Below are positions 39,342 to 53,541 of a stretch of DNA of 64,000 bases, piece by piece. Where the stretch lies: contig UQXW01000001.1 in the NCBI GenBank assembly GCA_900545215.1, positions 61,794 to 125,793 on the forward strand, in the 5' to 3' direction. Numbering within the stretch: position 1 is the stretch's first letter; every line of letters starts with the position of its first letter. The position numbers and the translations under genes are program-made. Source of the DNA: an uncultured Bacteroidota bacterium (GTDB taxonomy: Bacteria > Bacteroidota > Bacteroidia > Bacteroidales > P3). Below the pieces are notes generated by a model. That model did no database searches, was not told the DNA's origin, and was given only the letters and a program-made list of their open reading frames with translations.

Positions 39342-40784
39342 ATGTCTGAATCATTAAAAAATAAGACCGTTAAAGGTACTGTTTGGAGTTCCTTGGATGC
39401 CTTTTTAGGGCAGGGGATAACCTTTCTTGTCGGACTTGTACTTGCTCGTCTCTTATCTCCGGAAGAATACGGTCTTATAGCGATAATAACCATATTTATC
39501 TCCGTATTCAACAGCATTGTCGACAGTGGGTTCAGTAATGCCTTGATAAGAAAACAAGATGCAACGGAGGTAGATTATAATACGGTTTTCTATACCAATC
39601 TCGTCATAAGCGCAGTTCTATCGACAGCACTCTTCTTCGGAGCTCCGTTGATAGCGGATTTTTTTGCAAGACCGCAACTGACACCTTTGACACAGGCGAT
39701 GTCATCTATTGTGGTGATAAATGCTTTCTCGATAGTTCAGAACATACGTCTTACAAAAAACATAGACTTTAAGACAAAAACCAAAGTATCACTGATTGCG
39801 TCCGTCGCCAGTGGCATTATCGGTATAGCAATGGCGTTTAGCGGCTTTGGCGTTTGGTCTTTGGTCGCTCAACAAATATCAAGGCAATTACTTAATTCTG
39901 TTTTTCTTTGGGTCTTCAACAAGTGGCTTCCGAAGTTGATTTTTTCTTGGAAGAGTTTCAAAGAGATGTTTGACTTTGGTTGGAAACTGCTTGTATCGGG
40001 ATTGATAAACACAATTTGGACGGAAATATACCAAGTAGTAATAGGTAAATTCTATCAGCCGCAAACATTGGGACAGTATACAAGGGCTCAGCAGTTCTCT
40101 TCAATATTTTCCAGCAATCTTACATCGATTATTCAAAGGGTAAGCTACCCTGTGTTGAGTCAGTTGCAAGATGATAAAGAAAGATTGAAATCAGGCTACA
40201 AGCGAATTATAAAAATAACAATGCTGGTGAGCTTCGTACTTATGCTCGGACTTGCAGCAATAGCCAAACCGATGATATTGGTTCTTATAGGAGCCAAGTG
40301 GTTACCGGCAGTTCCTTTTCTGCAAATATTGTGCTTTAACATGATGTTATACCCTCTGCATTCCATAAACTTGAATATGTTGCAAGTGCAAGGACGTAGC
40401 GATTTGTTCCTGAAACTTGAAATAGTGAAAAAAATGATCGGCGTATTGCCTTTGTGTTTGGGAATATTCGTGAATATATATTACATGTTGATAAGTAGCG
40501 TATTTGTAGGCTTTTTCTCCTATTACCTGAATGCTCGATATTCCGGACCATTCCTTAATTACAGCATAAAGGAACAAGTCAAAGATATAATCCCGGGCTT
40601 TTCAATAGCACTGTTAATGGCATTACCGGTGTACGCAATATCATACCTTCCGCTTAATCCGTTTGTTCTTTTGCCCATACAACTATTGGCAGGTTTGTTG
40701 ATAGTTCTTGCATTGTGTGAGAAAATCGGATTGGAAGAATATAAAGAAATCAAATCGATAGTATTAGGTTTGTTAAAGAAATAG
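39342..40784 (+). CDS. wzx: Wzx-type oligosaccharide flippase (MOP superfamily)
   Basis: 480 aa with ~12-14 TM segments and an N-terminal VWSSLDAFLGQGITFLVGLVLARLL typical of polysaccharide biosynthesis (Wzx) proteins. Confidence 0.8.
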   Translation: MSESLKNKTVKGTVWSSLDAFLGQGITFLVGLVLARLLSPEEYGLIAIITIFISVFNSIVDSGFSNALIRKQDATEVDYNTVFYTNLVISAVLSTALFFGAPLIADFFARPQLTPLTQAMSSIVVINAFSIVQNIRLTKNIDFKTKTKVSLIASVASGIIGIAMAFSGFGVWSLVAQQISRQLLNSVFLWVFNKWLPKLIFSWKSFKEMFDFGWKLLVSGLINTIWTEIYQVVIGKFYQPQTLGQYTRAQQFSSIFSSNLTSIIQRVSYPVLSQLQDDKERLKSGYKRIIKITMLVSFVLMLGLAAIAKPMILVLIGAKWLPAVPFLQILCFNMMLYPLHSINLNMLQVQGRSDLFLKLEIVKKMIGVLPLCLGIFVNIYYMLISSVFVGFFSYYLNARYSGPFLNYSIKEQVKDIIPGFSIALLMALPVYAISYLPLNPFVLLPIQLLAGLLIVLALCEKIGLEEYKEIKSIVLGLLKK

Positions 40785-40826
40785 CAAGTGTTACATGTGT
40801 AAAGAATTGACAAATGTAAATAAAAT

Positions 40827-40834
40827 GGGGGGGG
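40827..40834 (+). repeat. poly-G (G8) homopolymeric tract fused to an ATG, a candidate slipped-strand phase switch for the acyltransferase gene
   Basis: ATG at 40825 followed by G8. In the current state it reads atg ggg ggg gag aaa ctc caa cct TGA. With G7 it reads MGGRNSNLELYRIVAMF…, in frame with the acyltransferase ORF. Confidence 0.85.
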
Positions 40835-40852
40835 AGAAACTCCAACCTTGAA

Positions 40853-41893
40853 TTGTATCGCATTGTTGCAATGTTTTTGATAGTGTGCCATCACTATGTC
40901 GTAAATTCAGGTTTGACCTTAGGTTGTTTGAGTTCGGATTTCTCGAATGCTAATAATGTTTTTGCACAGCTATTTGGAGCGTGGGGCAAAACAGGAATAA
41001 ACTGCTTTATGCTTATTACAGGGTATTTTATGTGCAAATCGCATATCACCTTGCAAAAATTCCTGAAGTTGATGGGGCAGATTTATTTTTGGCGATTTGT
41101 CATTTTCTTTGTATTCTGCTTGTTCGGCGTAGAACAAGTATCTTCTACCGGATTGGTAAAATTGATAATTCCCATTCCTATGGTGGAAACAAACTTTACA
41201 AGTTGCTTTATACTCTTTTGGCTGTTTATTCCTTTCTTGAATATTTTGATAGAAAACTTGAACAGGAAAATGCACTTACGTTTGTTGGCATTGTGCTTAT
41301 TCATTTATTCGTTCCTATACTTTTTACCCAAAGTGCATGTGGTCTATAACTACGTCTCATGGTTTATTGTTCTTTATTTCATAGCATCGTATTTGCGATT
41401 GTACCCCATAAGAAAAGACTCAGATGCCAAATTTTGGTTTTTCGCAACAATGGTGAGTATCATCGCATCACTTTCAATGAGTATTGGGTACATGATATTA
41501 TCAGGAAAAGGATTATTATGGAGTTTCCTTGTTGATTCCAATGCACCTATGGCTGTTGTAGTGTCGATTTGTTCGTTTATGTGGTTCAAGAACATTAAAA
41601 TCAAGCAGAGTAAATGGATTAACCTCGTTGGAGCAAGTACGTTCGGAGTCTTATTGATACATGCTAACAGCGATGCAATGCGACAATGGCTTTGGGTTGA
41701 CACACTTCAAAACGTTAAATGGTTTTCTTCCGATTATTTCTTTCTCCACATGCTTATTTCAACGGTATCCATCTTTGTTATATGTATATTGTTGGACAGA
41801 TTGAGGATAATTTTTGTTGAGAGACCTATAATGAAAAGATATTCTAAATTGATAGAGAGGTGTTCAACAAGGATTGTTACCTCAAAATATTAG
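40853..41893 (+). CDS. acyltransferase-3 (OatA/WecH-like) family membrane O-acyltransferase; N-terminus currently out of frame with the upstream ATG
   Basis: LYRIVAMFLIVCHHY matches the family's N-terminal R/H motif; ~10 TM segments. The ORF as it stands starts at TTG 40853 or ATG 40871, and the natural ATG at 40825 is one nucleotide out of frame. Confidence 0.7.
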   Translation: MYRIVAMFLIVCHHYVVNSGLTLGCLSSDFSNANNVFAQLFGAWGKTGINCFMLITGYFMCKSHITLQKFLKLMGQIYFWRFVIFFVFCLFGVEQVSSTGLVKLIIPIPMVETNFTSCFILFWLFIPFLNILIENLNRKMHLRLLALCLFIYSFLYFLPKVHVVYNYVSWFIVLYFIASYLRLYPIRKDSDAKFWFFATMVSIIASLSMSIGYMILSGKGLLWSFLVDSNAPMAVVVSICSFMWFKNIKIKQSKWINLVGASTFGVLLIHANSDAMRQWLWVDTLQNVKWFSSDYFFLHMLISTVSIFVICILLDRLRIIFVERPIMKRYSKLIERCSTRIVTSKY

Positions 41894-41920: not shown

Positions 41921-43036
41921 ATGGAAAAGCAAAAACAAATAACAGTAACCTCACCTTTGCTTCCCGATTTATCGGAACTTCATGTAATGATGCAGGAAAT
42001 TTGGGCAAGTAAATGGGTTACCAATAACGGACATTTTCATCACGAACTCGAAAAAGCACTTGCCGAGTACTTGAAAGTCCCGTACATAAGTCTTTTTACC
42101 AATGGCACATTACCCCTGATAACCGCATTGCAAGCCTTGCGGATAACAGGCGAAGTCATAACAAGCCCGTACAGTTTTGTTGCAACGACTCATGCCTTGT
42201 GGTGGAACGGAATAAAACCCGTTTTTGTTGATATAGACCCTGCAACATGCGGTTTGGATCCTGCAAAAATTGAAGCGGCAATCACTCCCAAAACCACCGC
42301 AATCATGCCGGTGCATTGTTACGGGAAACCATGCGATACCGAAGCCATTCAGCAGATAGCCGACAAATACGGATTGAGAGTAATCTATGATGCAGCTCAC
42401 GCTTTCGGCGTAGAATGCAATGGCGAAAGCATTTTGAAAGCTGGAGACATGAGTACCCTGAGTTTTCATGCCACCAAAGTGTATAACACACTTGAAGGAG
42501 GAGCCTTGGTTGTTCATGATGAAAAAACGAAACAACGTATAGACTATTTGAAAAACTTCGGATTCGCAGGAGAAACCGAGGTTGTCGCACCCGGAATAAA
42601 CTCCAAAGTAGATGAAGTCCGAGCAGCCTACGGATTATTGAACCTTAAACAAGTAGATAAAGCCATAGAAGCAAGGCGTAAAGTCGCACAACAATACAGA
42701 GAAGCCTTACGAAATATCGAAGGTATAAGCTTTTTCGATGACATGCAGGGAGTAAAACACAATTACAGTTACTTTCCTATATTCATAGACGCAGCAAAAT
42801 ATGGTAAAACACGAGATGAACTCTATTTCGAAATGAAAGAAAAAGGAGTCCTCGGTCGTCGTTACTTCTATCCGCTTATTTCAGACTTCTCGACATACAG
42901 AGGTTTGGAGTCTGCCGCCGCTGAAAACCTTCCTGTCGCCACAAAGATAGCCAAACAAGTAATCTGCCTGCCAATGCACCACGAACTGAAAGAAGAAGAT
43001 GTGGAGAGAGTGTTGGACTGTGTGAAGAGTGATTGA
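41921..43036 (+). CDS. DegT/DnrJ/EryC1/StrS-family sugar aminotransferase
   Basis: DAAHAFG and SFHATKVYNTLEGGALV (PLP-Lys) motifs; 371 aa. Confidence 0.9.
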   Translation: MEKQKQITVTSPLLPDLSELHVMMQEIWASKWVTNNGHFHHELEKALAEYLKVPYISLFTNGTLPLITALQALRITGEVITSPYSFVATTHALWWNGIKPVFVDIDPATCGLDPAKIEAAITPKTTAIMPVHCYGKPCDTEAIQQIADKYGLRVIYDAAHAFGVECNGESILKAGDMSTLSFHATKVYNTLEGGALVVHDEKTKQRIDYLKNFGFAGETEVVAPGINSKVDEVRAAYGLLNLKQVDKAIEARRKVAQQYREALRNIEGISFFDDMQGVKHNYSYFPIFIDAAKYGKTRDELYFEMKEKGVLGRRYFYPLISDFSTYRGLESAAAENLPVATKIAKQVICLPMHHELKEEDVERVLDCVKSD

Positions 43037-43054
43037 AATTATTATTGATTATCT

Positions 43055-44134
43055 ATGAAACAATTAGAAATACATGGTTACAAATCGATTAAGGATTTGG
43101 TTCTTCCGCTGAGAGAAATCAATATTCTGATTGGCGCAAACGGAAGCGGTAAGAGCAACTTGCTGTCATTCTTTGTATTTTTGAAAACTTTCTATAATAG
43201 AAATCTTCAAGAGTCTGTGGCTTTATCAGGAGGCATGGATAAGTTTTTGTATATGGGGCGTAAGATTACCTCTGAGATAAGTATAAAATTATTATTCCCG
43301 AATAATGCCTATTCTTTTACACTTGTTGCCGGTGAAGACGCTTTTGTGATAACCAAAGAGGGACTATGGTATGAGGCTAATCCGCACATGCCTAATCCTA
43401 TTGATATAGCATCTTTTTCCAAAGAGTCGGGATTACAATATGCCACGGTACCCCGCGCAGATTATATCCGTAATTATTTAAGTGAACTAAAGAAATATCA
43501 CTTTCATGATACGAGTAAGAACTCACCCTTTACAAAGGTGTCAAATGTAAAAACAGGAGGTCATTATTTGCTTCCGCAAGGAGAAAATTTGGCTGCTTTT
43601 CTATACACTGTTAGTCGGCAGACTCCAAAGAATTACAATTTGATTGTTCAGACTATACAAACCGTTGCCCCTTATTTCAGAGATTTTTATTTGAAACCTG
43701 ATGAGAATGGGAATTTGTCATTAAAATGGCAGGATAAATACAGCGAGAACATTTATGGAGCAACCGATTTATCAGATGGAACAATTCGTTTTATTGCCTT
43801 GACAACCTTATTTATGCAACCCCAATTACCGCAGACCATCATTTTGGATGAGCCGGAATTGGGACTTCACCCTGTAGCCATTGCCAAATTGAGCGGCATG
43901 ATAAAATCGGTTGCAGCCAAGGAGTGTCAAATCATTGTAGCAACGCAATCTACCGATTTGATCAGTTACTTTGATGCAGAGGATATTATTACAGTGGATC
44001 AAATTAATGGCGAAAGTATCTATAAGCGACTTTCTTCTGACGAGTTAGAAGATTGGTTGGAAGAATACACGATAGATGAACTGTGGAAACGGAATATGCT
44101 TCATAATGGGCAGCCGAATAATCAAGAGTTATGA
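43055..44134 (+). CDS. AAA_21/ABC-type (OLD/AbiLi/RloA-like) ATPase
   Basis: Walker A GANGSGKSN; signature-like LSDGTIRFIALTTLF; Walker B IILDEPELGLHP; H-loop ATQS. Confidence 0.8.
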   Translation: MKQLEIHGYKSIKDLVLPLREINILIGANGSGKSNLLSFFVFLKTFYNRNLQESVALSGGMDKFLYMGRKITSEISIKLLFPNNAYSFTLVAGEDAFVITKEGLWYEANPHMPNPIDIASFSKESGLQYATVPRADYIRNYLSELKKYHFHDTSKNSPFTKVSNVKTGGHYLLPQGENLAAFLYTVSRQTPKNYNLIVQTIQTVAPYFRDFYLKPDENGNLSLKWQDKYSENIYGATDLSDGTIRFIALTTLFMQPQLPQTIILDEPELGLHPVAIAKLSGMIKSVAAKECQIIVATQSTDLISYFDAEDIITVDQINGESIYKRLSSDELEDWLEEYTIDELWKRNMLHNGQPNNQEL

Positions 44135-44787
44135 GCAGAGTAATTGTTATTTGCGAAGGCGAAACCGAACGAGAATTTTGCCAAACGCTCCTTTTCGGAT
44201 ATTTTGCGAGCATTGGTAAATATATAGAAGCACCATTGATAAAGCGCTCGCATGGCGGAATCGTTCGTTGGGAAATATTGAAAAAGCAAATTGAAACAAC
44301 TCTACGCAAAGAACAAGATGCAATAGTAACACTGCTTATTGATTATTATGGGTTGCATGAAAAGCACTATTTTCCGGGGTGGGACGAAGCTGAAAAAATT
44401 ATAGATAAAATAAAACGTGTATCCTATCTGGAAGATACTATGAGGCAGGATATAGATGATAGTATTCGTTATCGTTTTATTCCTTACTTGCAGTTACATG
44501 AGTTTGAAGCTCTGCTTTTTTGTGATGCGGAGATATTTAAAAATATGATTCCCGAAAAAGAATTGATAGGTCTTCAGGAATTGCAGACCGTGATTGATAG
44601 TAATCCCAATCCCGAGTTAATTAACACAAGGAAAGAAAACACGCCCTCTCATAGATTGTCGCGTATAATAAAAGGTTATAATAAAATCGTTTACGGAAAT
44701 CTGATAGCTGAACGTATTGGTTTGTCAACCATGCGTTCAAAATGTCTTCGATTTAATAATTGGTTGAATGAATTGGAAAAAGCATAA
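44131..44787 (+). CDS. DUF4276/RloB-like protein (TOPRIM-like N-terminal CEGETE motif), partner of the upstream ATPase
   Basis: The start overlaps the ATPase stop (ATGA). N-terminal RVIVICEGETEREF and a later acidic LLIDYYG motif. Length is 218 aa. Confidence 0.65.
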   Translation: MSRVIVICEGETEREFCQTLLFGYFASIGKYIEAPLIKRSHGGIVRWEILKKQIETTLRKEQDAIVTLLIDYYGLHEKHYFPGWDEAEKIIDKIKRVSYLEDTMRQDIDDSIRYRFIPYLQLHEFEALLFCDAEIFKNMIPEKELIGLQELQTVIDSNPNPELINTRKENTPSHRLSRIIKGYNKIVYGNLIAERIGLSTMRSKCLRFNNWLNELEKA

Positions 44788-45030: not shown

Positions 45031-45100
45031 GATAGTAAATACAGACATTTGATGAGTGTATATAGTGCAACTTAATATGTGAAAATATGAAGAATTCGTT

Positions 45101-45126: not shown

Positions 45127-45165
45127 TAGTCAAGAAGTATAATATAAAAACTTTTAGGGGGGTGG

Positions 45166-46185
45166 ATGCTTACCTCCATTTATGTAAATGATTATAAACA
45201 GAAAAAAGCATCATATCTCGCTATTGCCAAGGCTCACTTGGCAGGGTGGAGCTACTCGGATGAACGCATTTTGGGAGTAACAAATGCAAACAGAAAGCAT
45301 AATCTCTCGACAAGAGATTATTGTTCTCTTCATCCATTTAATGGTTCGTATAGTTTCTGGATTGATGATAAGTTGACCTTAAAATATATTCTGAGTGGGA
45401 CGAAAGCAGGTAAATATATGCCTGAATACTATTTTCAAATATCTGATAATGGCAGTATAATTCCACTGATGGACTTGGATGCGTGTTATGCTATGCAAGG
45501 TCTGGATGGTATTGTCTCTTTATTGGAAAGCAAAGGTACGCTTGCATTCAAATTGATAAAGAGTAGTTTAGGTGTAGGCTTCTACCGAGTGGAATACAAT
45601 GATGGGGTTTATTACATGAATGGCGAAAAAATGAATCGAGAGCAATTCATGTCAAAGATATGTTCACTTAGAAACTATATAGTTACGGAGTTTTTATTCC
45701 CACATCCCGAAATAGCGAAATTATGTGATAAGTCGGTCGGATGTTTACGTTATATAGTCGGTCGGAATAAAAAAGGTGAAATTCAAGACATATACTCTTT
45801 CATGCGTTTTGGAACAAGTAAATCTAAGTATGTGGAGAACTACAATTCAGGAGGAGTTTTGTCAATTATCCATGATGGGAAATATATAGGCGGAAATGTC
45901 TTGGATTTTGAAACCAATACAAATTGTAAGATAGAAAGACATCCTGATAACGACGTTGTGCTGAAAAGTGAAATTCCTCATTGGGATATAATAGTTCAGG
46001 CGGCACATGAGATTGCGGACGTTATGCCACAGTTGTCATATATGGGAATTGATTTTTGTATAACGAATACAGATAAGGTAAAAGTAATAGAGATAAATTC
46101 TCTTACCAGTTTGGATTCTTTGCAGACGGATATGTCTATTTTTGATACTTCTGCCGGTGTTTTCTTTCGTGAAAGATTAAGATGA
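45166..46185 (+). CDS. sugar-transfer-associated ATP-grasp (ATPgrasp_ST-like) protein
   Basis: 339 aa. The layout and motifs (…GVGFYRVEY…, C-terminal IEINSLTSLDSLQ) resemble ATP-grasp enzymes found in polysaccharide loci. Confidence 0.6.
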   Translation: MLTSIYVNDYKQKKASYLAIAKAHLAGWSYSDERILGVTNANRKHNLSTRDYCSLHPFNGSYSFWIDDKLTLKYILSGTKAGKYMPEYYFQISDNGSIIPLMDLDACYAMQGLDGIVSLLESKGTLAFKLIKSSLGVGFYRVEYNDGVYYMNGEKMNREQFMSKICSLRNYIVTEFLFPHPEIAKLCDKSVGCLRYIVGRNKKGEIQDIYSFMRFGTSKSKYVENYNSGGVLSIIHDGKYIGGNVLDFETNTNCKIERHPDNDVVLKSEIPHWDIIVQAAHEIADVMPQLSYMGIDFCITNTDKVKVIEINSLTSLDSLQTDMSIFDTSAGVFFRERLR

Positions 46186-46191
46186 TTTTGA

Positions 46192-47415
46192 ATGAAGCAA
46201 AAAACGATTTTACTGCTTGGCGGCTCTGCACAGCAGGTTGTGGCTATACAGGCAGCTAAAGAACTTGGGTATCGCACCGTATTGTGCGATTATCTCTCGG
46301 ATAATCCGGGGCAATATACTGCCGACAAATATTACAATAAGAGTACTACCGATGTTGAGGCAGTTTATGAGATAGCAAAGAGTGAGAAGGCAGATGGTAT
46401 TCTTGCATATGCCTCCGACCCTGCTGCGTTTCCTGCTGCCATTGTGGCAGAAAGGCTTGGTTTGCCGACCAATCCGGCGAAAAGTGTGGAAATACTTGGC
46501 TTGAAATACCCTTGGCGTCGTTTTTTGCATGATAACGGCTTTGCTTGCCCCAAGGTTTATTCGTTTAATCCGACTACCTCTATTGCGGAAATCCAAGAAA
46601 ATACAAAAGACTTTACGTTTCCTTTGGTTGTTAAGCCTACGGATTCCTCCGGTAGCAAGGGAGTAACCATGCTTGAGGATTGGAGAGGCATTGAAAGGGC
46701 TGTGGCATGGGCAGATACCTATTCAAGGAATAAAGTTTTACTTGTCGAGGAGTATATACAAAGAGGATTTCCTGCAGTAATCGGTGGAGATATTTTTGTT
46801 TGGAACGGGAAAATTGTATTGTACGGCATTATGGAATGCCTCAGAGACGTGCTCAGAAGCCCGTTAATCCCTATAGGGGAAAAAAAACCCTTAGAGATTA
46901 ATAAAATACAACAGGAACGAATATATGCGGAATTACAGAGGATTGTAACTGCACTTGACATTAACTGCGGAGAGTTAAATGTTGAAATAATTCTTGATAA
47001 GGAAGACAACGTACACTTTTTGGAATTGGGACCGCGTGCGGGAGGAAACATGATACCTATTCAGCTTGGTGATGCATTCGGAATAGATTTGGTGAAAGCT
47101 AATGTACAGGCGGCAATGGGTGAAAAGCCTGATTTTATAAATAAAGAGATAAAGGCTCTTCCCGGTTGTTACATGCACTATGTATTGCATAGCTATGAAG
47201 CAGGAATGTTTAAGGGTATTGAAATAGATGATAGCATTGCTTCGAATGTGTATAGACAGGTGATTTATAAGAAATACGGTGATAAAATTGAAGTATTTGA
47301 TGGAGCAGGAAAGGCTTTGGGCATAATCTTTTTGCATTTTGATAAAGTGGAACAAATGAATGCTTTCTGCGATAAGCACGATGAATTAGTCAGAGTGTTA
47401 TTGGAGAGTAAATAA
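46192..47415 (+). CDS. ATP-grasp domain enzyme (carboxylate-amine ligase type)
   Basis: An N-terminal pre-ATP-grasp domain (ILLLGGSAQQVVAIQAAKELGY); central FPLVVKPTDSSGSKGV; C-terminal FLELGPRAGGNMIP. Confidence 0.8.
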   Translation: MKQKTILLLGGSAQQVVAIQAAKELGYRTVLCDYLSDNPGQYTADKYYNKSTTDVEAVYEIAKSEKADGILAYASDPAAFPAAIVAERLGLPTNPAKSVEILGLKYPWRRFLHDNGFACPKVYSFNPTTSIAEIQENTKDFTFPLVVKPTDSSGSKGVTMLEDWRGIERAVAWADTYSRNKVLLVEEYIQRGFPAVIGGDIFVWNGKIVLYGIMECLRDVLRSPLIPIGEKKPLEINKIQQERIYAELQRIVTALDINCGELNVEIILDKEDNVHFLELGPRAGGNMIPIQLGDAFGIDLVKANVQAAMGEKPDFINKEIKALPGCYMHYVLHSYEAGMFKGIEIDDSIASNVYRQVIYKKYGDKIEVFDGAGKALGIIFLHFDKVEQMNAFCDKHDELVRVLLESK

Positions 47416-47422
47416 AAAACTT

Positions 47423-47869
47423 ATGGAAGAAATAAAACTTGAAAATGGCAAACTCTCATATATCTCGGTGATAGAGATTTTGAGGAAGTATTCGCCATTA
47501 TTTACCCCCCCCCTATCACAATCGCTTGATTTAGAGGAGTATTCTGCAAAGTTATTCAATAAGGCAAACTTTGTAATATACCGAGACCGAGGGGAGATTA
47601 AGGGGCTTATTGCATATTATAATAATAAGCAAAAGAACCAAGTGTATATTACGTTGATTTGTGTTGATGGGATATGCCAATCACACGGTATCGGCAGTAA
47701 AATGCTTGACCATCTTGTCGGACTTATCAATAGAACGAGAGGAGAGTTCGGCACCATAGCCTTGGAAGTAAACAAAAAGAACTATAAAGCTCTGCGTTTC
47801 TATACTAAACACGGCTTTATAAGGATAGAAGATCGTGGTGAGAAAGTCTTGATGGAGAAAATGTTGTAA
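47423..47869 (+). CDS. GNAT-family N-acetyltransferase (contains an in-frame C9 tract)
   Basis: GNAT motif A region QSHGIGSKMLDHLV and motif B NKKNYKALRFYTKHGF. Confidence 0.8.
   Translation: MEEIKLENGKLSYISVIEILRKYSPLFTPPLSQSLDLEEYSAKLFNKANFVIYRDRGEIKGLIAYYNNKQKNQVYITLICVDGICQSHGIGSKMLDHLVGLINRTRGEFGTIALEVNKKNYKALRFYTKHGFIRIEDRGEKVLMEKML
47505..47513 (+). repeat. poly-C (C9) homopolymeric tract inside the GNAT CDS (codons ~28-30, T-P-P)
   Basis: tttaCCCCCCCCCtatcac. It is in frame in this sequence, and a ±1 slip would truncate the enzyme. Confidence 0.85.
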
Positions 47870-52002: not shown

Positions 52003-53541
52003 ATGCAGAAAAAAAATGGTGATACTATAAATAAAAAGAAGATAGCTATTAATACAATTATTGTCTATGTTAGACTTTTTATAACTACAATAATAGGGCT
52101 TATATCTACACGGCTTGTTTTAAGAATATTGGGTGTTGCTGATTATGGTCTGTACAATGTTGTAGGTGGTATCATTGTTGTCTTGAATGTGTTTTGTGTG
52201 GCTATGCATACAACCACTAGACGTTTCATAAATGTTGAAATGGGCAAGTTGGACGGAAATGTCAATAAGGTATTCAATATATGCATGAAGTTACATATAC
52301 GAATTGCTGTAATCTTTTTTTTGTTGGCAGAACTGATAGGACTTTTGTATATATATAATTATCTGAATGTAGAGGAATGTAGACTTTCTGATTGCGTGTT
52401 TATATATAATATTTCTTTAATCACTTCTTGTTTAGGATTGATTAATGTTCCTTATCAAAGTACACTTGTTGCTCGTGAGCGATTTATTGATATTGCTCTT
52501 ATAGATATAATTACAAAAATAATTCTATTCGGAATGATAATCCTACTCTATATTCGTGGAGGGTATGCATTACGTCTTTATGCAATATCAATGTGTGTTT
52601 CTGTTCTCTTGTCGTTGATATTGTATACTCTTGGTTGTTATAGGAGATATTCTTCGGATGTATGCTTGAAAAGATATGTAGATAAAGATTTGACAAAAGA
52701 AATGCTAAGATTTAACGCTTACACAACAATTGGAGCATCTTCATATATGATAAGAGCACAGGGAGCGAATATTATAATCAATTTATTCTTTAATACTATT
52801 GTGAATGGAGCCTATGCAATAGCATATCAAATCGAAAGCTATTTAATTTTATTTATTAGTAATCTAACAACAGCTTCTGCTCCTCAAATTACAAAGAGTT
52901 ATGCTAATGGGGATATTGATGCGTCAATGAATTTGGTAATGCGAATGAATAGATTGTGTATACTAGTAATGATGTTTATTTGCTTTGCGGCTATTGTAGA
53001 ATTGCCTTTTTTGTTGAAATTATGGTTGGGAGTAGTTCCAGAATATGCAGTATTATTCGTCTCTTTGACGATAATTAGTGCATTTATTCGCTCTTTGGGA
53101 GAAGGTATTCCCCCATTGGTACAAGCGTCAGGAAGGATAAAGTGGTTTCAGATTTTTGGCTCTATATTTACTTTCTTAGATATACCATTTGTAATTATAT
53201 TCTTTGTTTTGGGATTTCCTCCACAAACTATGATAATCGTGTTTTGTGTTTCTTCTATTTGTGGACGTATAGTTAATATCTATTTGTTGTATCGGATATT
53301 GAAGTATGATGTATTATTGTTTTTGCGAGTATCCTATTTTCCAATTATTAAAATTCTCCCATTTTTAGTAGCGTACTATGTTTTGTATTCACGATTTGAA
53401 CTTACAACAAATTTATCTCATGTTATTGGCTTATTGAGTTCTGTTATTCTTGCTGGAATTATAATCTTTTTCTTGGGCTTTGATGAGAAAGAACGTCTTT
53501 CTATATTCAATACACTTAAAACAAAATTAAAAACAAGATAA
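52003..53541 (+). CDS. second Wzx-type oligosaccharide flippase (MOP superfamily)
   Basis: 512 aa with ~14 TM segments and an N-terminal ININTIIVYVRLFITTIIGLISTRLVLRILG typical of Wzx proteins. An A8 tract directly follows the ATG. Confidence 0.75.
   Translation: MQKKNGDTINKKKIAINTIIVYVRLFITTIIGLISTRLVLRILGVADYGLYNVVGGIIVVLNVFCVAMHTTTRRFINVEMGKLDGNVNKVFNICMKLHIRIAVIFFLLAELIGLLYIYNYLNVEECRLSDCVFIYNISLITSCLGLINVPYQSTLVARERFIDIALIDIITKIILFGMIILLYIRGGYALRLYAISMCVSVLLSLILYTLGCYRRYSSDVCLKRYVDKDLTKEMLRFNAYTTIGASSYMIRAQGANIIINLFFNTIVNGAYAIAYQIESYLILFISNLTTASAPQITKSYANGDIDASMNLVMRMNRLCILVMMFICFAAIVELPFLLKLWLGVVPEYAVLFVSLTIISAFIRSLGEGIPPLVQASGRIKWFQIFGSIFTFLDIPFVIIFFVLGFPPQTMIIVFCVSSICGRIVNIYLLYRILKYDVLLFLRVSYFPIIKILPFLVAYYVLYSRFELTTNLSHVIGLLSSVILAGIIIFFLGFDEKERLSIFNTLKTKLKTR

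Follow-up and report, generated by a model that had tools for sequence, protein, structure and literature searches.

A probable poly-G phase-variation switch in an acyltransferase-3 gene of a Bacteroidales surface-polysaccharide locus

Introduction

One of the closest described counterparts of the gene considered here is oafA of Haemophilus influenzae, which likewise encodes an acyltransferase-3 (AT3) O-acetyltransferase (acting on heptose III of the lipooligosaccharide) and is likewise switched by a simple repeat in the 5' part of its open reading frame (ORF); the H. influenzae reference genome carried it frameshifted (PMC9558356). Here we analyse a similar arrangement in a stretch of 64,000 nucleotides (nt) from an uncultured Bacteroidales bacterium (contig UQXW01000001.1 of assembly GCA_900545215.1; hereafter the window), in which a run of eight G's near the 5' end of an AT3 gene leaves that gene out of frame. 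The two cases differ in that the oafA repeat is a tetranucleotide, in an airway pathogen and with an experimentally proven function, whereas the AT3 gene here is known from its sequence. Comparison of related contigs makes it probable that the gene is phase-variable through slipped-strand mispairing, with tract lengths of G7 and G10 giving the ON state, G6, G8 and G9 giving the OFF state, and the window itself OFF; we infer the mechanism, its reversibility and the product.

Other relatives share parts of this arrangement. The pglI gene of Neisseria meningitidis also encodes an AT3-domain acetyltransferase with repeat-mediated phase variation, as one of several phase-variable glycan genes that together yield many glycoforms, and relatives of pglI include non-variable, locked alleles (PMC11130364). 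It differs in being an AT3-SGNH fusion with a protein-linked glycan as target, the protein here being AT3-only. Campylobacter jejuni likewise carries several intragenic G/C homopolymers in capsule and lipooligosaccharide decoration genes of one surface-polysaccharide locus, yielding combinatorial phasotypes (PMC8437040, PMC8355987). It belongs to another phylum and uses other enzymes, and switching rates and phage and immune phenotypes have been measured there. Its tracts are about 8-11 nt long.

AT3 enzymes that modify O-antigen or capsule are also known from Salmonella (OafB/GtrC-type) and from Shigella phage (Oac), the latter AT3-only like the protein described here (PMC9558356); sequence identity between these enzymes and the protein here is low, the relationship being compared at the level of the Pfam family only, and the phase variation of oafB differs in being epigenetic (Dam/OxyR type) rather than repeat-mediated. 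Within the same order as the window, the invertible promoters of Bacteroides capsule loci likewise produce stochastic variation of gut surface polysaccharides (PMC11868660, PMC12118408), but there a recombinase inverts promoters and flips whole loci, whereas a homopolymer frameshift would here switch single decoration enzymes. Within the library that it covered, our literature search returned no description of repeat-mediated AT3 phase variation in Bacteroidales or Segatella, nor of homopolymer frameshifts that switch single decoration enzymes in Bacteroidales. Patrick et al. (2010) merely speculated on homopolymer switching in Bacteroidales, from a C4-to-C5 frameshift, and a 2025 review poses repeat-mediated multi-gene switching as an open question (PMC11868660).

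Results

A G8 tract interrupts an otherwise intact AT3 reading frame

The features on which the argument depends are as follows.

40795 to 40797, plus strand: ATG with which the AT3 gene probably begins, 10 nt past the flippase stop codon and in frame with ATG 40825
40825 to 40827, plus strand: ATG taken as the start by the initial annotation; probably internal Met11, possibly an alternative start
40827 to 40834, plus strand: poly-G tract, G8 (OFF in the window), codons 11-13; putative hypermutable switch, varying from G6 to G10 in contigs with identical flanks
40849 to 40851, plus strand: premature TGA of the G8 frame, terminating the 18-codon peptide MCKELTNVNKMGGEKLQP (translation)
40853 to 41893, plus strand: body of the AT3 ORF as the sequence stands, 346 amino acids from TTG 40853; the next ATG is at 40871

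The count of eight includes the G of ATG 40825-40827. Translated from that ATG, the present frame reads M-G-G-E-K-L-Q-P-stop, and the long ORF can now begin only at TTG 40853 or ATG 40871; on both points the initial annotation was correct. Deleting one G gives an uninterrupted ORF of 355 amino acids from ATG 40825 to 41893 (MGGRNSNLELYRIVAMFLIVCHHY...), the in-frame lengths thus being G7 and G10 and the out-of-frame lengths G6, G8 and G9. The prediction that a G7 or G10 tract restores the acyltransferase is matched by gene calls in relatives, of 365 amino acids for G7 and 366 for G10.

The initial annotation also held that the tract is fused to the start codon, and here we differ. ATG 40795 lies 30 nt before ATG 40825, and the gene calls P0001, P0125 and P0126, of 365 or 366 amino acids, begin there (MCKELTNVNKMGG...); the 365-amino-acid proteins called in relatives from this in-frame upstream ATG read MCKELTNVNKMGGRNSN..., and one call of 355 amino acids (P0131) begins at ATG 40825. 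The latter ATG is not conserved in two diverged alleles of the gene, alleles 2 and 3, described below. Allele 2 has ACG at that position, and its ORF opens at the corresponding ATG further upstream. ATG 40795 is therefore the most likely start codon, which places the tract inside the gene, at codons 11-13. The ON/OFF logic is identical whichever of the two ATGs starts translation.

Tract length varies between near-identical contigs

Comparing tract lengths in related strains had been proposed as a check, and we carried it out on contigs fetched for members of the AT3 90%-identity protein cluster and on neighbours reached through the flippase and ATP-grasp genes. The cluster comprises proteins of 365, 366, 355, 340, 294, 273 and 237 amino acids, the 366-residue form having MGGGR, with one extra Gly, where the 365-residue form has MGGR. 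For the window's allele (allele 1), 45 distinct public contigs from gut metagenomes or metagenome-assembled genomes (MAGs), with identical flanks, gave tract lengths from G6 to G10:

G6: 1 contig, OFF
G7: 7 contigs, ON
G8: 25 contigs, OFF
G9: 9 contigs, OFF
G10: 2 contigs, ON
ATA+G7: 1 contig (L029), OFF

In the last of these, ATA stands in place of ATG, which leaves a run of G7 while the frame stays OFF. Contig L138 (protein P0128) combines G6 with a loss of 4 nt (AAAAC-GGGGGG-AGCTCC), and its gene looks recombinant, the 5' part resembling allele 2 and the 3' part allele 1. The OFF forms are annotated inconsistently for the same DNA (contigs L001-L034), either as 340 amino acids from ATG 40871 or as 294 amino acids from a later Met, and protein databases therefore contain many artificial "truncated acyltransferases" from this locus.

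The most informative comparisons are between contigs that are otherwise almost indistinguishable. Contig L130, from macaque run ERR2136670, and contig L137 show no substitution in 14,225 nt and differ only at two G tracts, with G8 against G7 in the AT3 tract and G8 against G9 in a tract before an ATP-grasp gene. Two macaque samples of PRJEB22765 carry G7 (L037) and G8 (L044) with a single substitution in 4,023 nt, and a group of nine contigs, drawn from two projects, shows 100% identity over 3-4 kb outside the tract, which is G8 in six of them and G9 in three. We therefore conclude that the tract changes much faster than the surrounding sequence. Length was constant in the same contigs for the unselected control runs, namely A7 at 40428, T7 at 39659 and several runs of A6 or T6. 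An A8 run at 46880, within the ATP-grasp gene through which loci were picked, also did not vary; it was rejected as a control, since those loci had been chosen by exact identity of the protein that it encodes. The run series SRR11450244-252 was likewise set aside as an example of ON/OFF switching within one study, because its contigs differ by 5-88 substitutions and so represent several strains.

An allele identical to that of the window, G8 included, is present in independent assemblies of different studies (L001, L002, L003, L005, L025, L135 and L139), so G8 is not a one-off error, and the possibility raised at the outset that the tract is an assembly artefact was not borne out. The length polymorphism between near-identical contigs thus supports the proposed ON/OFF switch, currently OFF, for which slippage would be the mechanism.

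The tract is retained in diverged alleles

Two further alleles allow the history of the tract to be followed over greater distances. Allele 2 (79% amino-acid identity) has the form AAAAC-Gn-AGAAGC, with G7 in nine contigs and G8 in four, together with a G10-type protein of 366 amino acids (P0137). Allele 3 (71% identity, from chicken-gut samples) has GCAC-G9/G10-CAGAGA, which is out of frame; G8 would be in frame. The three alleles (98%, 79% and 71% amino-acid identity) all retain a G tract at the same place, and orthologues that lack the tract and use the downstream ATG, which would have spoken against a switch, were not seen among them. A search of the genome collection did not return the window's own allele, its best match being allele 2 at 81% (L050).

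When the window allele is compared with an allele-2 contig that is likewise OFF, the ratio of nonsynonymous to synonymous substitution rates (dN/dS) is 0.055 at a saturated dS of about 2.2, and the 349 codons downstream of the tract are without stops. GGG accounts for 7.8% of Gly codons in the genome, and GGG-GGG is nevertheless kept in all three alleles. Low dN/dS, retention of GGG-GGG and an intact ORF indicate that the tract itself is maintained, by selection acting across the diverged alleles, and speak against a pseudogene in decay.

The restored protein is an AT3 membrane acyltransferase

The protein restored by an in-frame tract matches PF01757 (Acyl_transf_3) at 56.5 bits (gathering cut-off 31), with residues 6-323 covering profile positions 2-324 of 326, and its best PHROG match is an O-acetyltransferase family (E 8.5e-12); none of the NCBIfam models matched. 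It is a stand-alone AT3 protein of 365 amino acids with no SGNH domain. Its AlphaFold model (predicted local distance difference test score, pLDDT, 84; predicted template-modelling score 0.84) is all-helical with about ten long helices between residues 16 and 362, and its hydropathy profile agrees with the roughly ten transmembrane helices of AT3 enzymes. A sequence search found no relatives of the protein in the PDB, and the nine top Foldseek matches there, HGSNAT or entries labelled "membrane proteins", are weak (E 0.2, probability 0.94, template-modelling score 0.41).

The AT3 motif R/K-X10-H in the first transmembrane helix (PMC9558356) is present as LELYR22-IVAMFLIVCH-H33, and R14, S16, N17, E19, R22, H32 and H33 are invariant in an alignment of 22 homologues. 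A leader of at least eight residues precedes LELYR in all full-length homologues, upstream of the conserved R-x-S-N-L-E-L-x-R block. In the model, residues 1-13 are disordered (pLDDT below 50) and residue 16 is the first of helix 1. The Gly-Gly that the tract specifies would thus lie in a disordered cytoplasmic leader, just ahead of R14, the first structured invariant residue. In that position the gain or loss of one Gly would be harmless, and G7 and G10 would both be viable ON states because Gly-Gly lies in a tolerant tail.

The two starts left to the G8 form fare differently. Initiation at TTG 40853 loses R14, S16, N17 and E19 and keeps R22-X10-H33, and initiation at ATG 40871 loses R22 as well. 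Thus, G8 is probably a true OFF state, giving at best an N-terminally truncated form without invariant residues. Both the family and the position of the gene, between a Wzx flippase and sugar-nucleotide genes, indicate that the intact enzyme most likely O-acylates the surface polysaccharide.

G tracts recur at the same position across an AT3 subfamily

To place the tract in a wider setting, we surveyed 76 species-representative homologues from a genome collection (the set L050-L129: Bacteroidales, Clostridia and others). A run of at least seven G's within 120 nt before the LELYR motif was present in 18 of them, against 0.17 expected from the nine such runs found across the other 479 kb of these loci, and without exception the G's are on the coding strand. 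In eleven of the 18 carriers the tract is out of frame; each of these regains an ATG-led leader of 11-29 amino acids when 1-2 nt are changed. The distance from tract to motif ranges from 12 to 43 nt among carriers, their leaders cannot be aligned, and a neighbour-joining tree requires at least ten gains or losses of the tract. Carriers include Segatella copri (L068, G9, OFF), the S. copri isolate AF10-17 (L073, G7, ON) and S. sinensis CLA-AA-H174 (L070, G7, ON), as well as Clostridia MAGs such as L066, L078, L112, L114, L120 and L121. In one homologue, L096, the same Gly-Gly is written GGA-GGT, whereas the related L100 carries G7 there; L096 is a natural locked form, like the non-variable alleles of pglI relatives.

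Locus context and two further variable tracts

The genes that flank the AT3 gene and two additional homopolymers lie on the same strand:

39342 to 40784, plus strand: Wzx-type flippase gene, directly upstream of AT3 in the same operon orientation (Pfam Polysacc_synt_3, E 2e-96)
41921 to 43036, plus strand: DegT-family sugar aminotransferase gene, directly downstream of AT3 (PF01041, E 3e-99)
45157 to 45162, plus strand: variable tract, here G6, located 4 nt ahead of the start codon (ATG 45166) of an ATPgrasp_ST gene (45166-46185)
47505 to 47513, plus strand: C9 tract, in frame and ON in the window, codons 28-31 of a GNAT acetyltransferase gene (47423-47869)

Upstream, the locus contains two UDP-glucose dehydrogenases, RmlA- and RmlB-like genes and the flippase; downstream of AT3 follow the DegT aminotransferase, an AAA_21 and DUF4276 pair, two ATP-grasp genes and two GNAT genes. 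Judged by this company, the AT3 gene belongs to a Wzx-type surface-polysaccharide cluster. Gut metagenomes, among them human and macaque ones, carry the locus, as do the MAGs GCA_900772755.1, GCA_963603455.1 and GCA_036728245.1.

The window contains only three G/C runs of six or more (at 40827, 45157 and 47505), all within this one polysaccharide locus, and the tracts at 45157 and 47505 also vary in length. In ten loci picked through the neighbouring ATP-grasp gene, the C tract at 47505 was C9 in six, C8 in two and C7 in two, and the GNAT protein cluster contains forms of 148 amino acids and truncated forms of 75 (P0217, on 74 contigs), so that the GNAT gene also looks phase-variable. The tract at 45157 was G7 in three of the same ten loci, G8 in five and G9 in two. 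With G8 it joins an upstream ATG at 45087 to the ATP-grasp gene, giving a form of 366 amino acids with 27 extra N-terminal residues, and with the G6 of the window the ORF from ATG 45087 stops shortly past its overlap with ATG 45166. For the AT3 and GNAT genes, each of the four possible ON/OFF combinations was observed. The single switch first described is therefore variable as proposed, but it is one of three variable tracts in the locus.

Several other observations concern the locus and its surroundings. In some strains (L131 and L132) the flippase gene (481 amino acids) is followed directly by DegT and AT3 is absent; on this distribution the AT3 gene is an accessory insertion as well as putatively phase-variable. 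The AAA_21 ATPase and DUF4276 pair (43055-44134 and 44131-44787) matches the PADLOC candidate anti-phage system HEC-01 (E 4e-133 and 1e-75), and other strains have at this spot a different AAA_15 ATPase (380 amino acids) and a 212-amino-acid gene. A second flippase-like gene (52003-53541) has an A8 run at 52009-52016, starting 6 nt after its ATG at 52003, in a region that is not common to the fetched loci. An indel of 81-82 nt near position 9796 of L130 is the only large difference between the otherwise identical 14-kb loci of L130 and L134, and changes the call of an enoyl-CoA hydratase-like gene from 179 to 246 amino acids. The same organism encodes a protein sorted by the type IX secretion system, which confirms that it belongs to Bacteroidota, and the best named relatives of its alanyl-tRNA synthetase, listed as "Bacteroidales bacterium", reach 75% identity.

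Discussion

The simplest account of these observations is that slipped-strand mispairing during replication adds or removes G's at 40827-40834. G7 and G10 would keep ATG 40795 (and ATG 40825) in frame and give the 365- or 366-amino-acid membrane acyltransferase of ten helices, and with G6, G8 or G9 translation would end after 18-30 codons, so that the enzyme would not be made. The tract before the ATP-grasp gene (G6-G9) and that in the GNAT gene (C7-C9) would switch independently, producing combinatorial variants of glycan decoration, for which phage, antibody or competition may be the selective agent. That each of two alleles includes G7 and G10, the two ON lengths, as well as OFF lengths is an indirect hint that switching is reversible.

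Several points weigh against this account. A G8 run is on its own statistically unremarkable in 64 kb, where dinucleotide-preserving shuffles give on average 0.54 G8/C8 8-mers per window (G6 words are if anything depleted, with 8 observed against 13.7 expected); what goes beyond chance is the context, that is, three G/C runs, proximal to the 5' ends of decoration-enzyme genes and all length-variable in related contigs. About 70% of the listed contigs carry OFF lengths, in a sample whose length frequencies are biased by retrieval through protein look-ups. One widespread clone has only G8 and G9, both OFF, which also fits relaxed selection or one-way loss. All contigs are assembly consensus sequences, some of low coverage (about 2x for L005 and L006), and the TTG at 40853, 1 nt past the TGA, could in principle allow some expression from the OFF form.

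These points lead to three other explanations. That the length differences are sequencing or assembly errors in homopolymers, the real gene being an intact G7, draws on the error-proneness of such runs on some platforms and on the few contigs at about 2x. We regard it as very improbable, given that the exact G8 allele is found in independent assemblies of different studies, that G7, G8, G9 or G10 is found on long contigs (50-350 kb) of many Illumina studies, that A7, T7, A6 and T6 runs on the same contigs are constant in length, and that a run of 8 nt is far below any assembly k-mer. A decaying pseudogene or neutral hotspot, in which the frameshift is a one-way loss and no adaptive switching takes place, would account for the majority of OFF lengths and the clone with G8 and G9 only, for the absence of AT3 in L131 and L132, and for the 4-nt deletion beside the tract in L138 and the ATG-to-ATA change in L029. 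However, no OFF contig has secondary stops or frameshifts over the 349 downstream codons, dN/dS is low between two OFF alleles despite saturated dS, the position of the tract is kept in three diverged alleles despite rare use of GGG, G7 and G10 are both present in each of two alleles, and runs of at least seven G's are enriched about 100-fold at this position across the family, with the repeated independent gains or losses noted above. We therefore consider decay unlikely.

It may also be that G8 is not really OFF and that the tract tunes the level of expression, by transcriptional slippage, ribosomal frameshifting or reinitiation at TTG 40853. Long homopolymers are slippage sites for RNA polymerase, and the TTG start would keep R22-X10-H33. 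The same start, however, would remove four residues invariant in 22 homologues together with the first turn of helix 1, and among 120 homologues the only ones to start so near the motif are those with an out-of-frame tract of their own; since length variation at the level of DNA is abundant, a mechanism at the level of RNA is unnecessary, and we think this explanation improbable. A slipped-strand switch, OFF in the window, thus remains the account that we favour.

Looking beyond the window, we lean towards a broader picture in which one AT3 subfamily of gut anaerobes (Bacteroidota and Bacillota, including the cultured Segatella copri) has repeatedly evolved a poly-G switch in its disordered leader and in which, in this Bacteroidales lineage, the AT3 switch works with the ATP-grasp and GNAT homopolymer switches as a combinatorial, repeat-based "phasome" of capsule decoration. 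The mechanism itself is classical; the novelty lies in its occurrence in gut commensals, since phase variation of surface glycans in gut Bacteroidales is put down almost wholly to invertible promoters. Multi-gene switching by repeats is regarded as a trait of mucosal pathogens, and here three putative homopolymer switches lie in one locus of a commensal lineage known only from metagenomes. If this is correct, then capsule O-acylation and other decorations would vary stochastically within strains, with consequences for phage host range, antibody recognition and strain tracking, and gene callers and MAG pipelines would systematically mis-annotate such genes as truncated, as in the calls of 294 and 340 amino acids at this locus. 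ON and OFF states would then be readable from existing metagenomes and could be correlated with phage load or host state, and repeat-mediated switching would constitute an overlooked layer of surface variation in gut commensals, beside that of the invertible promoters.

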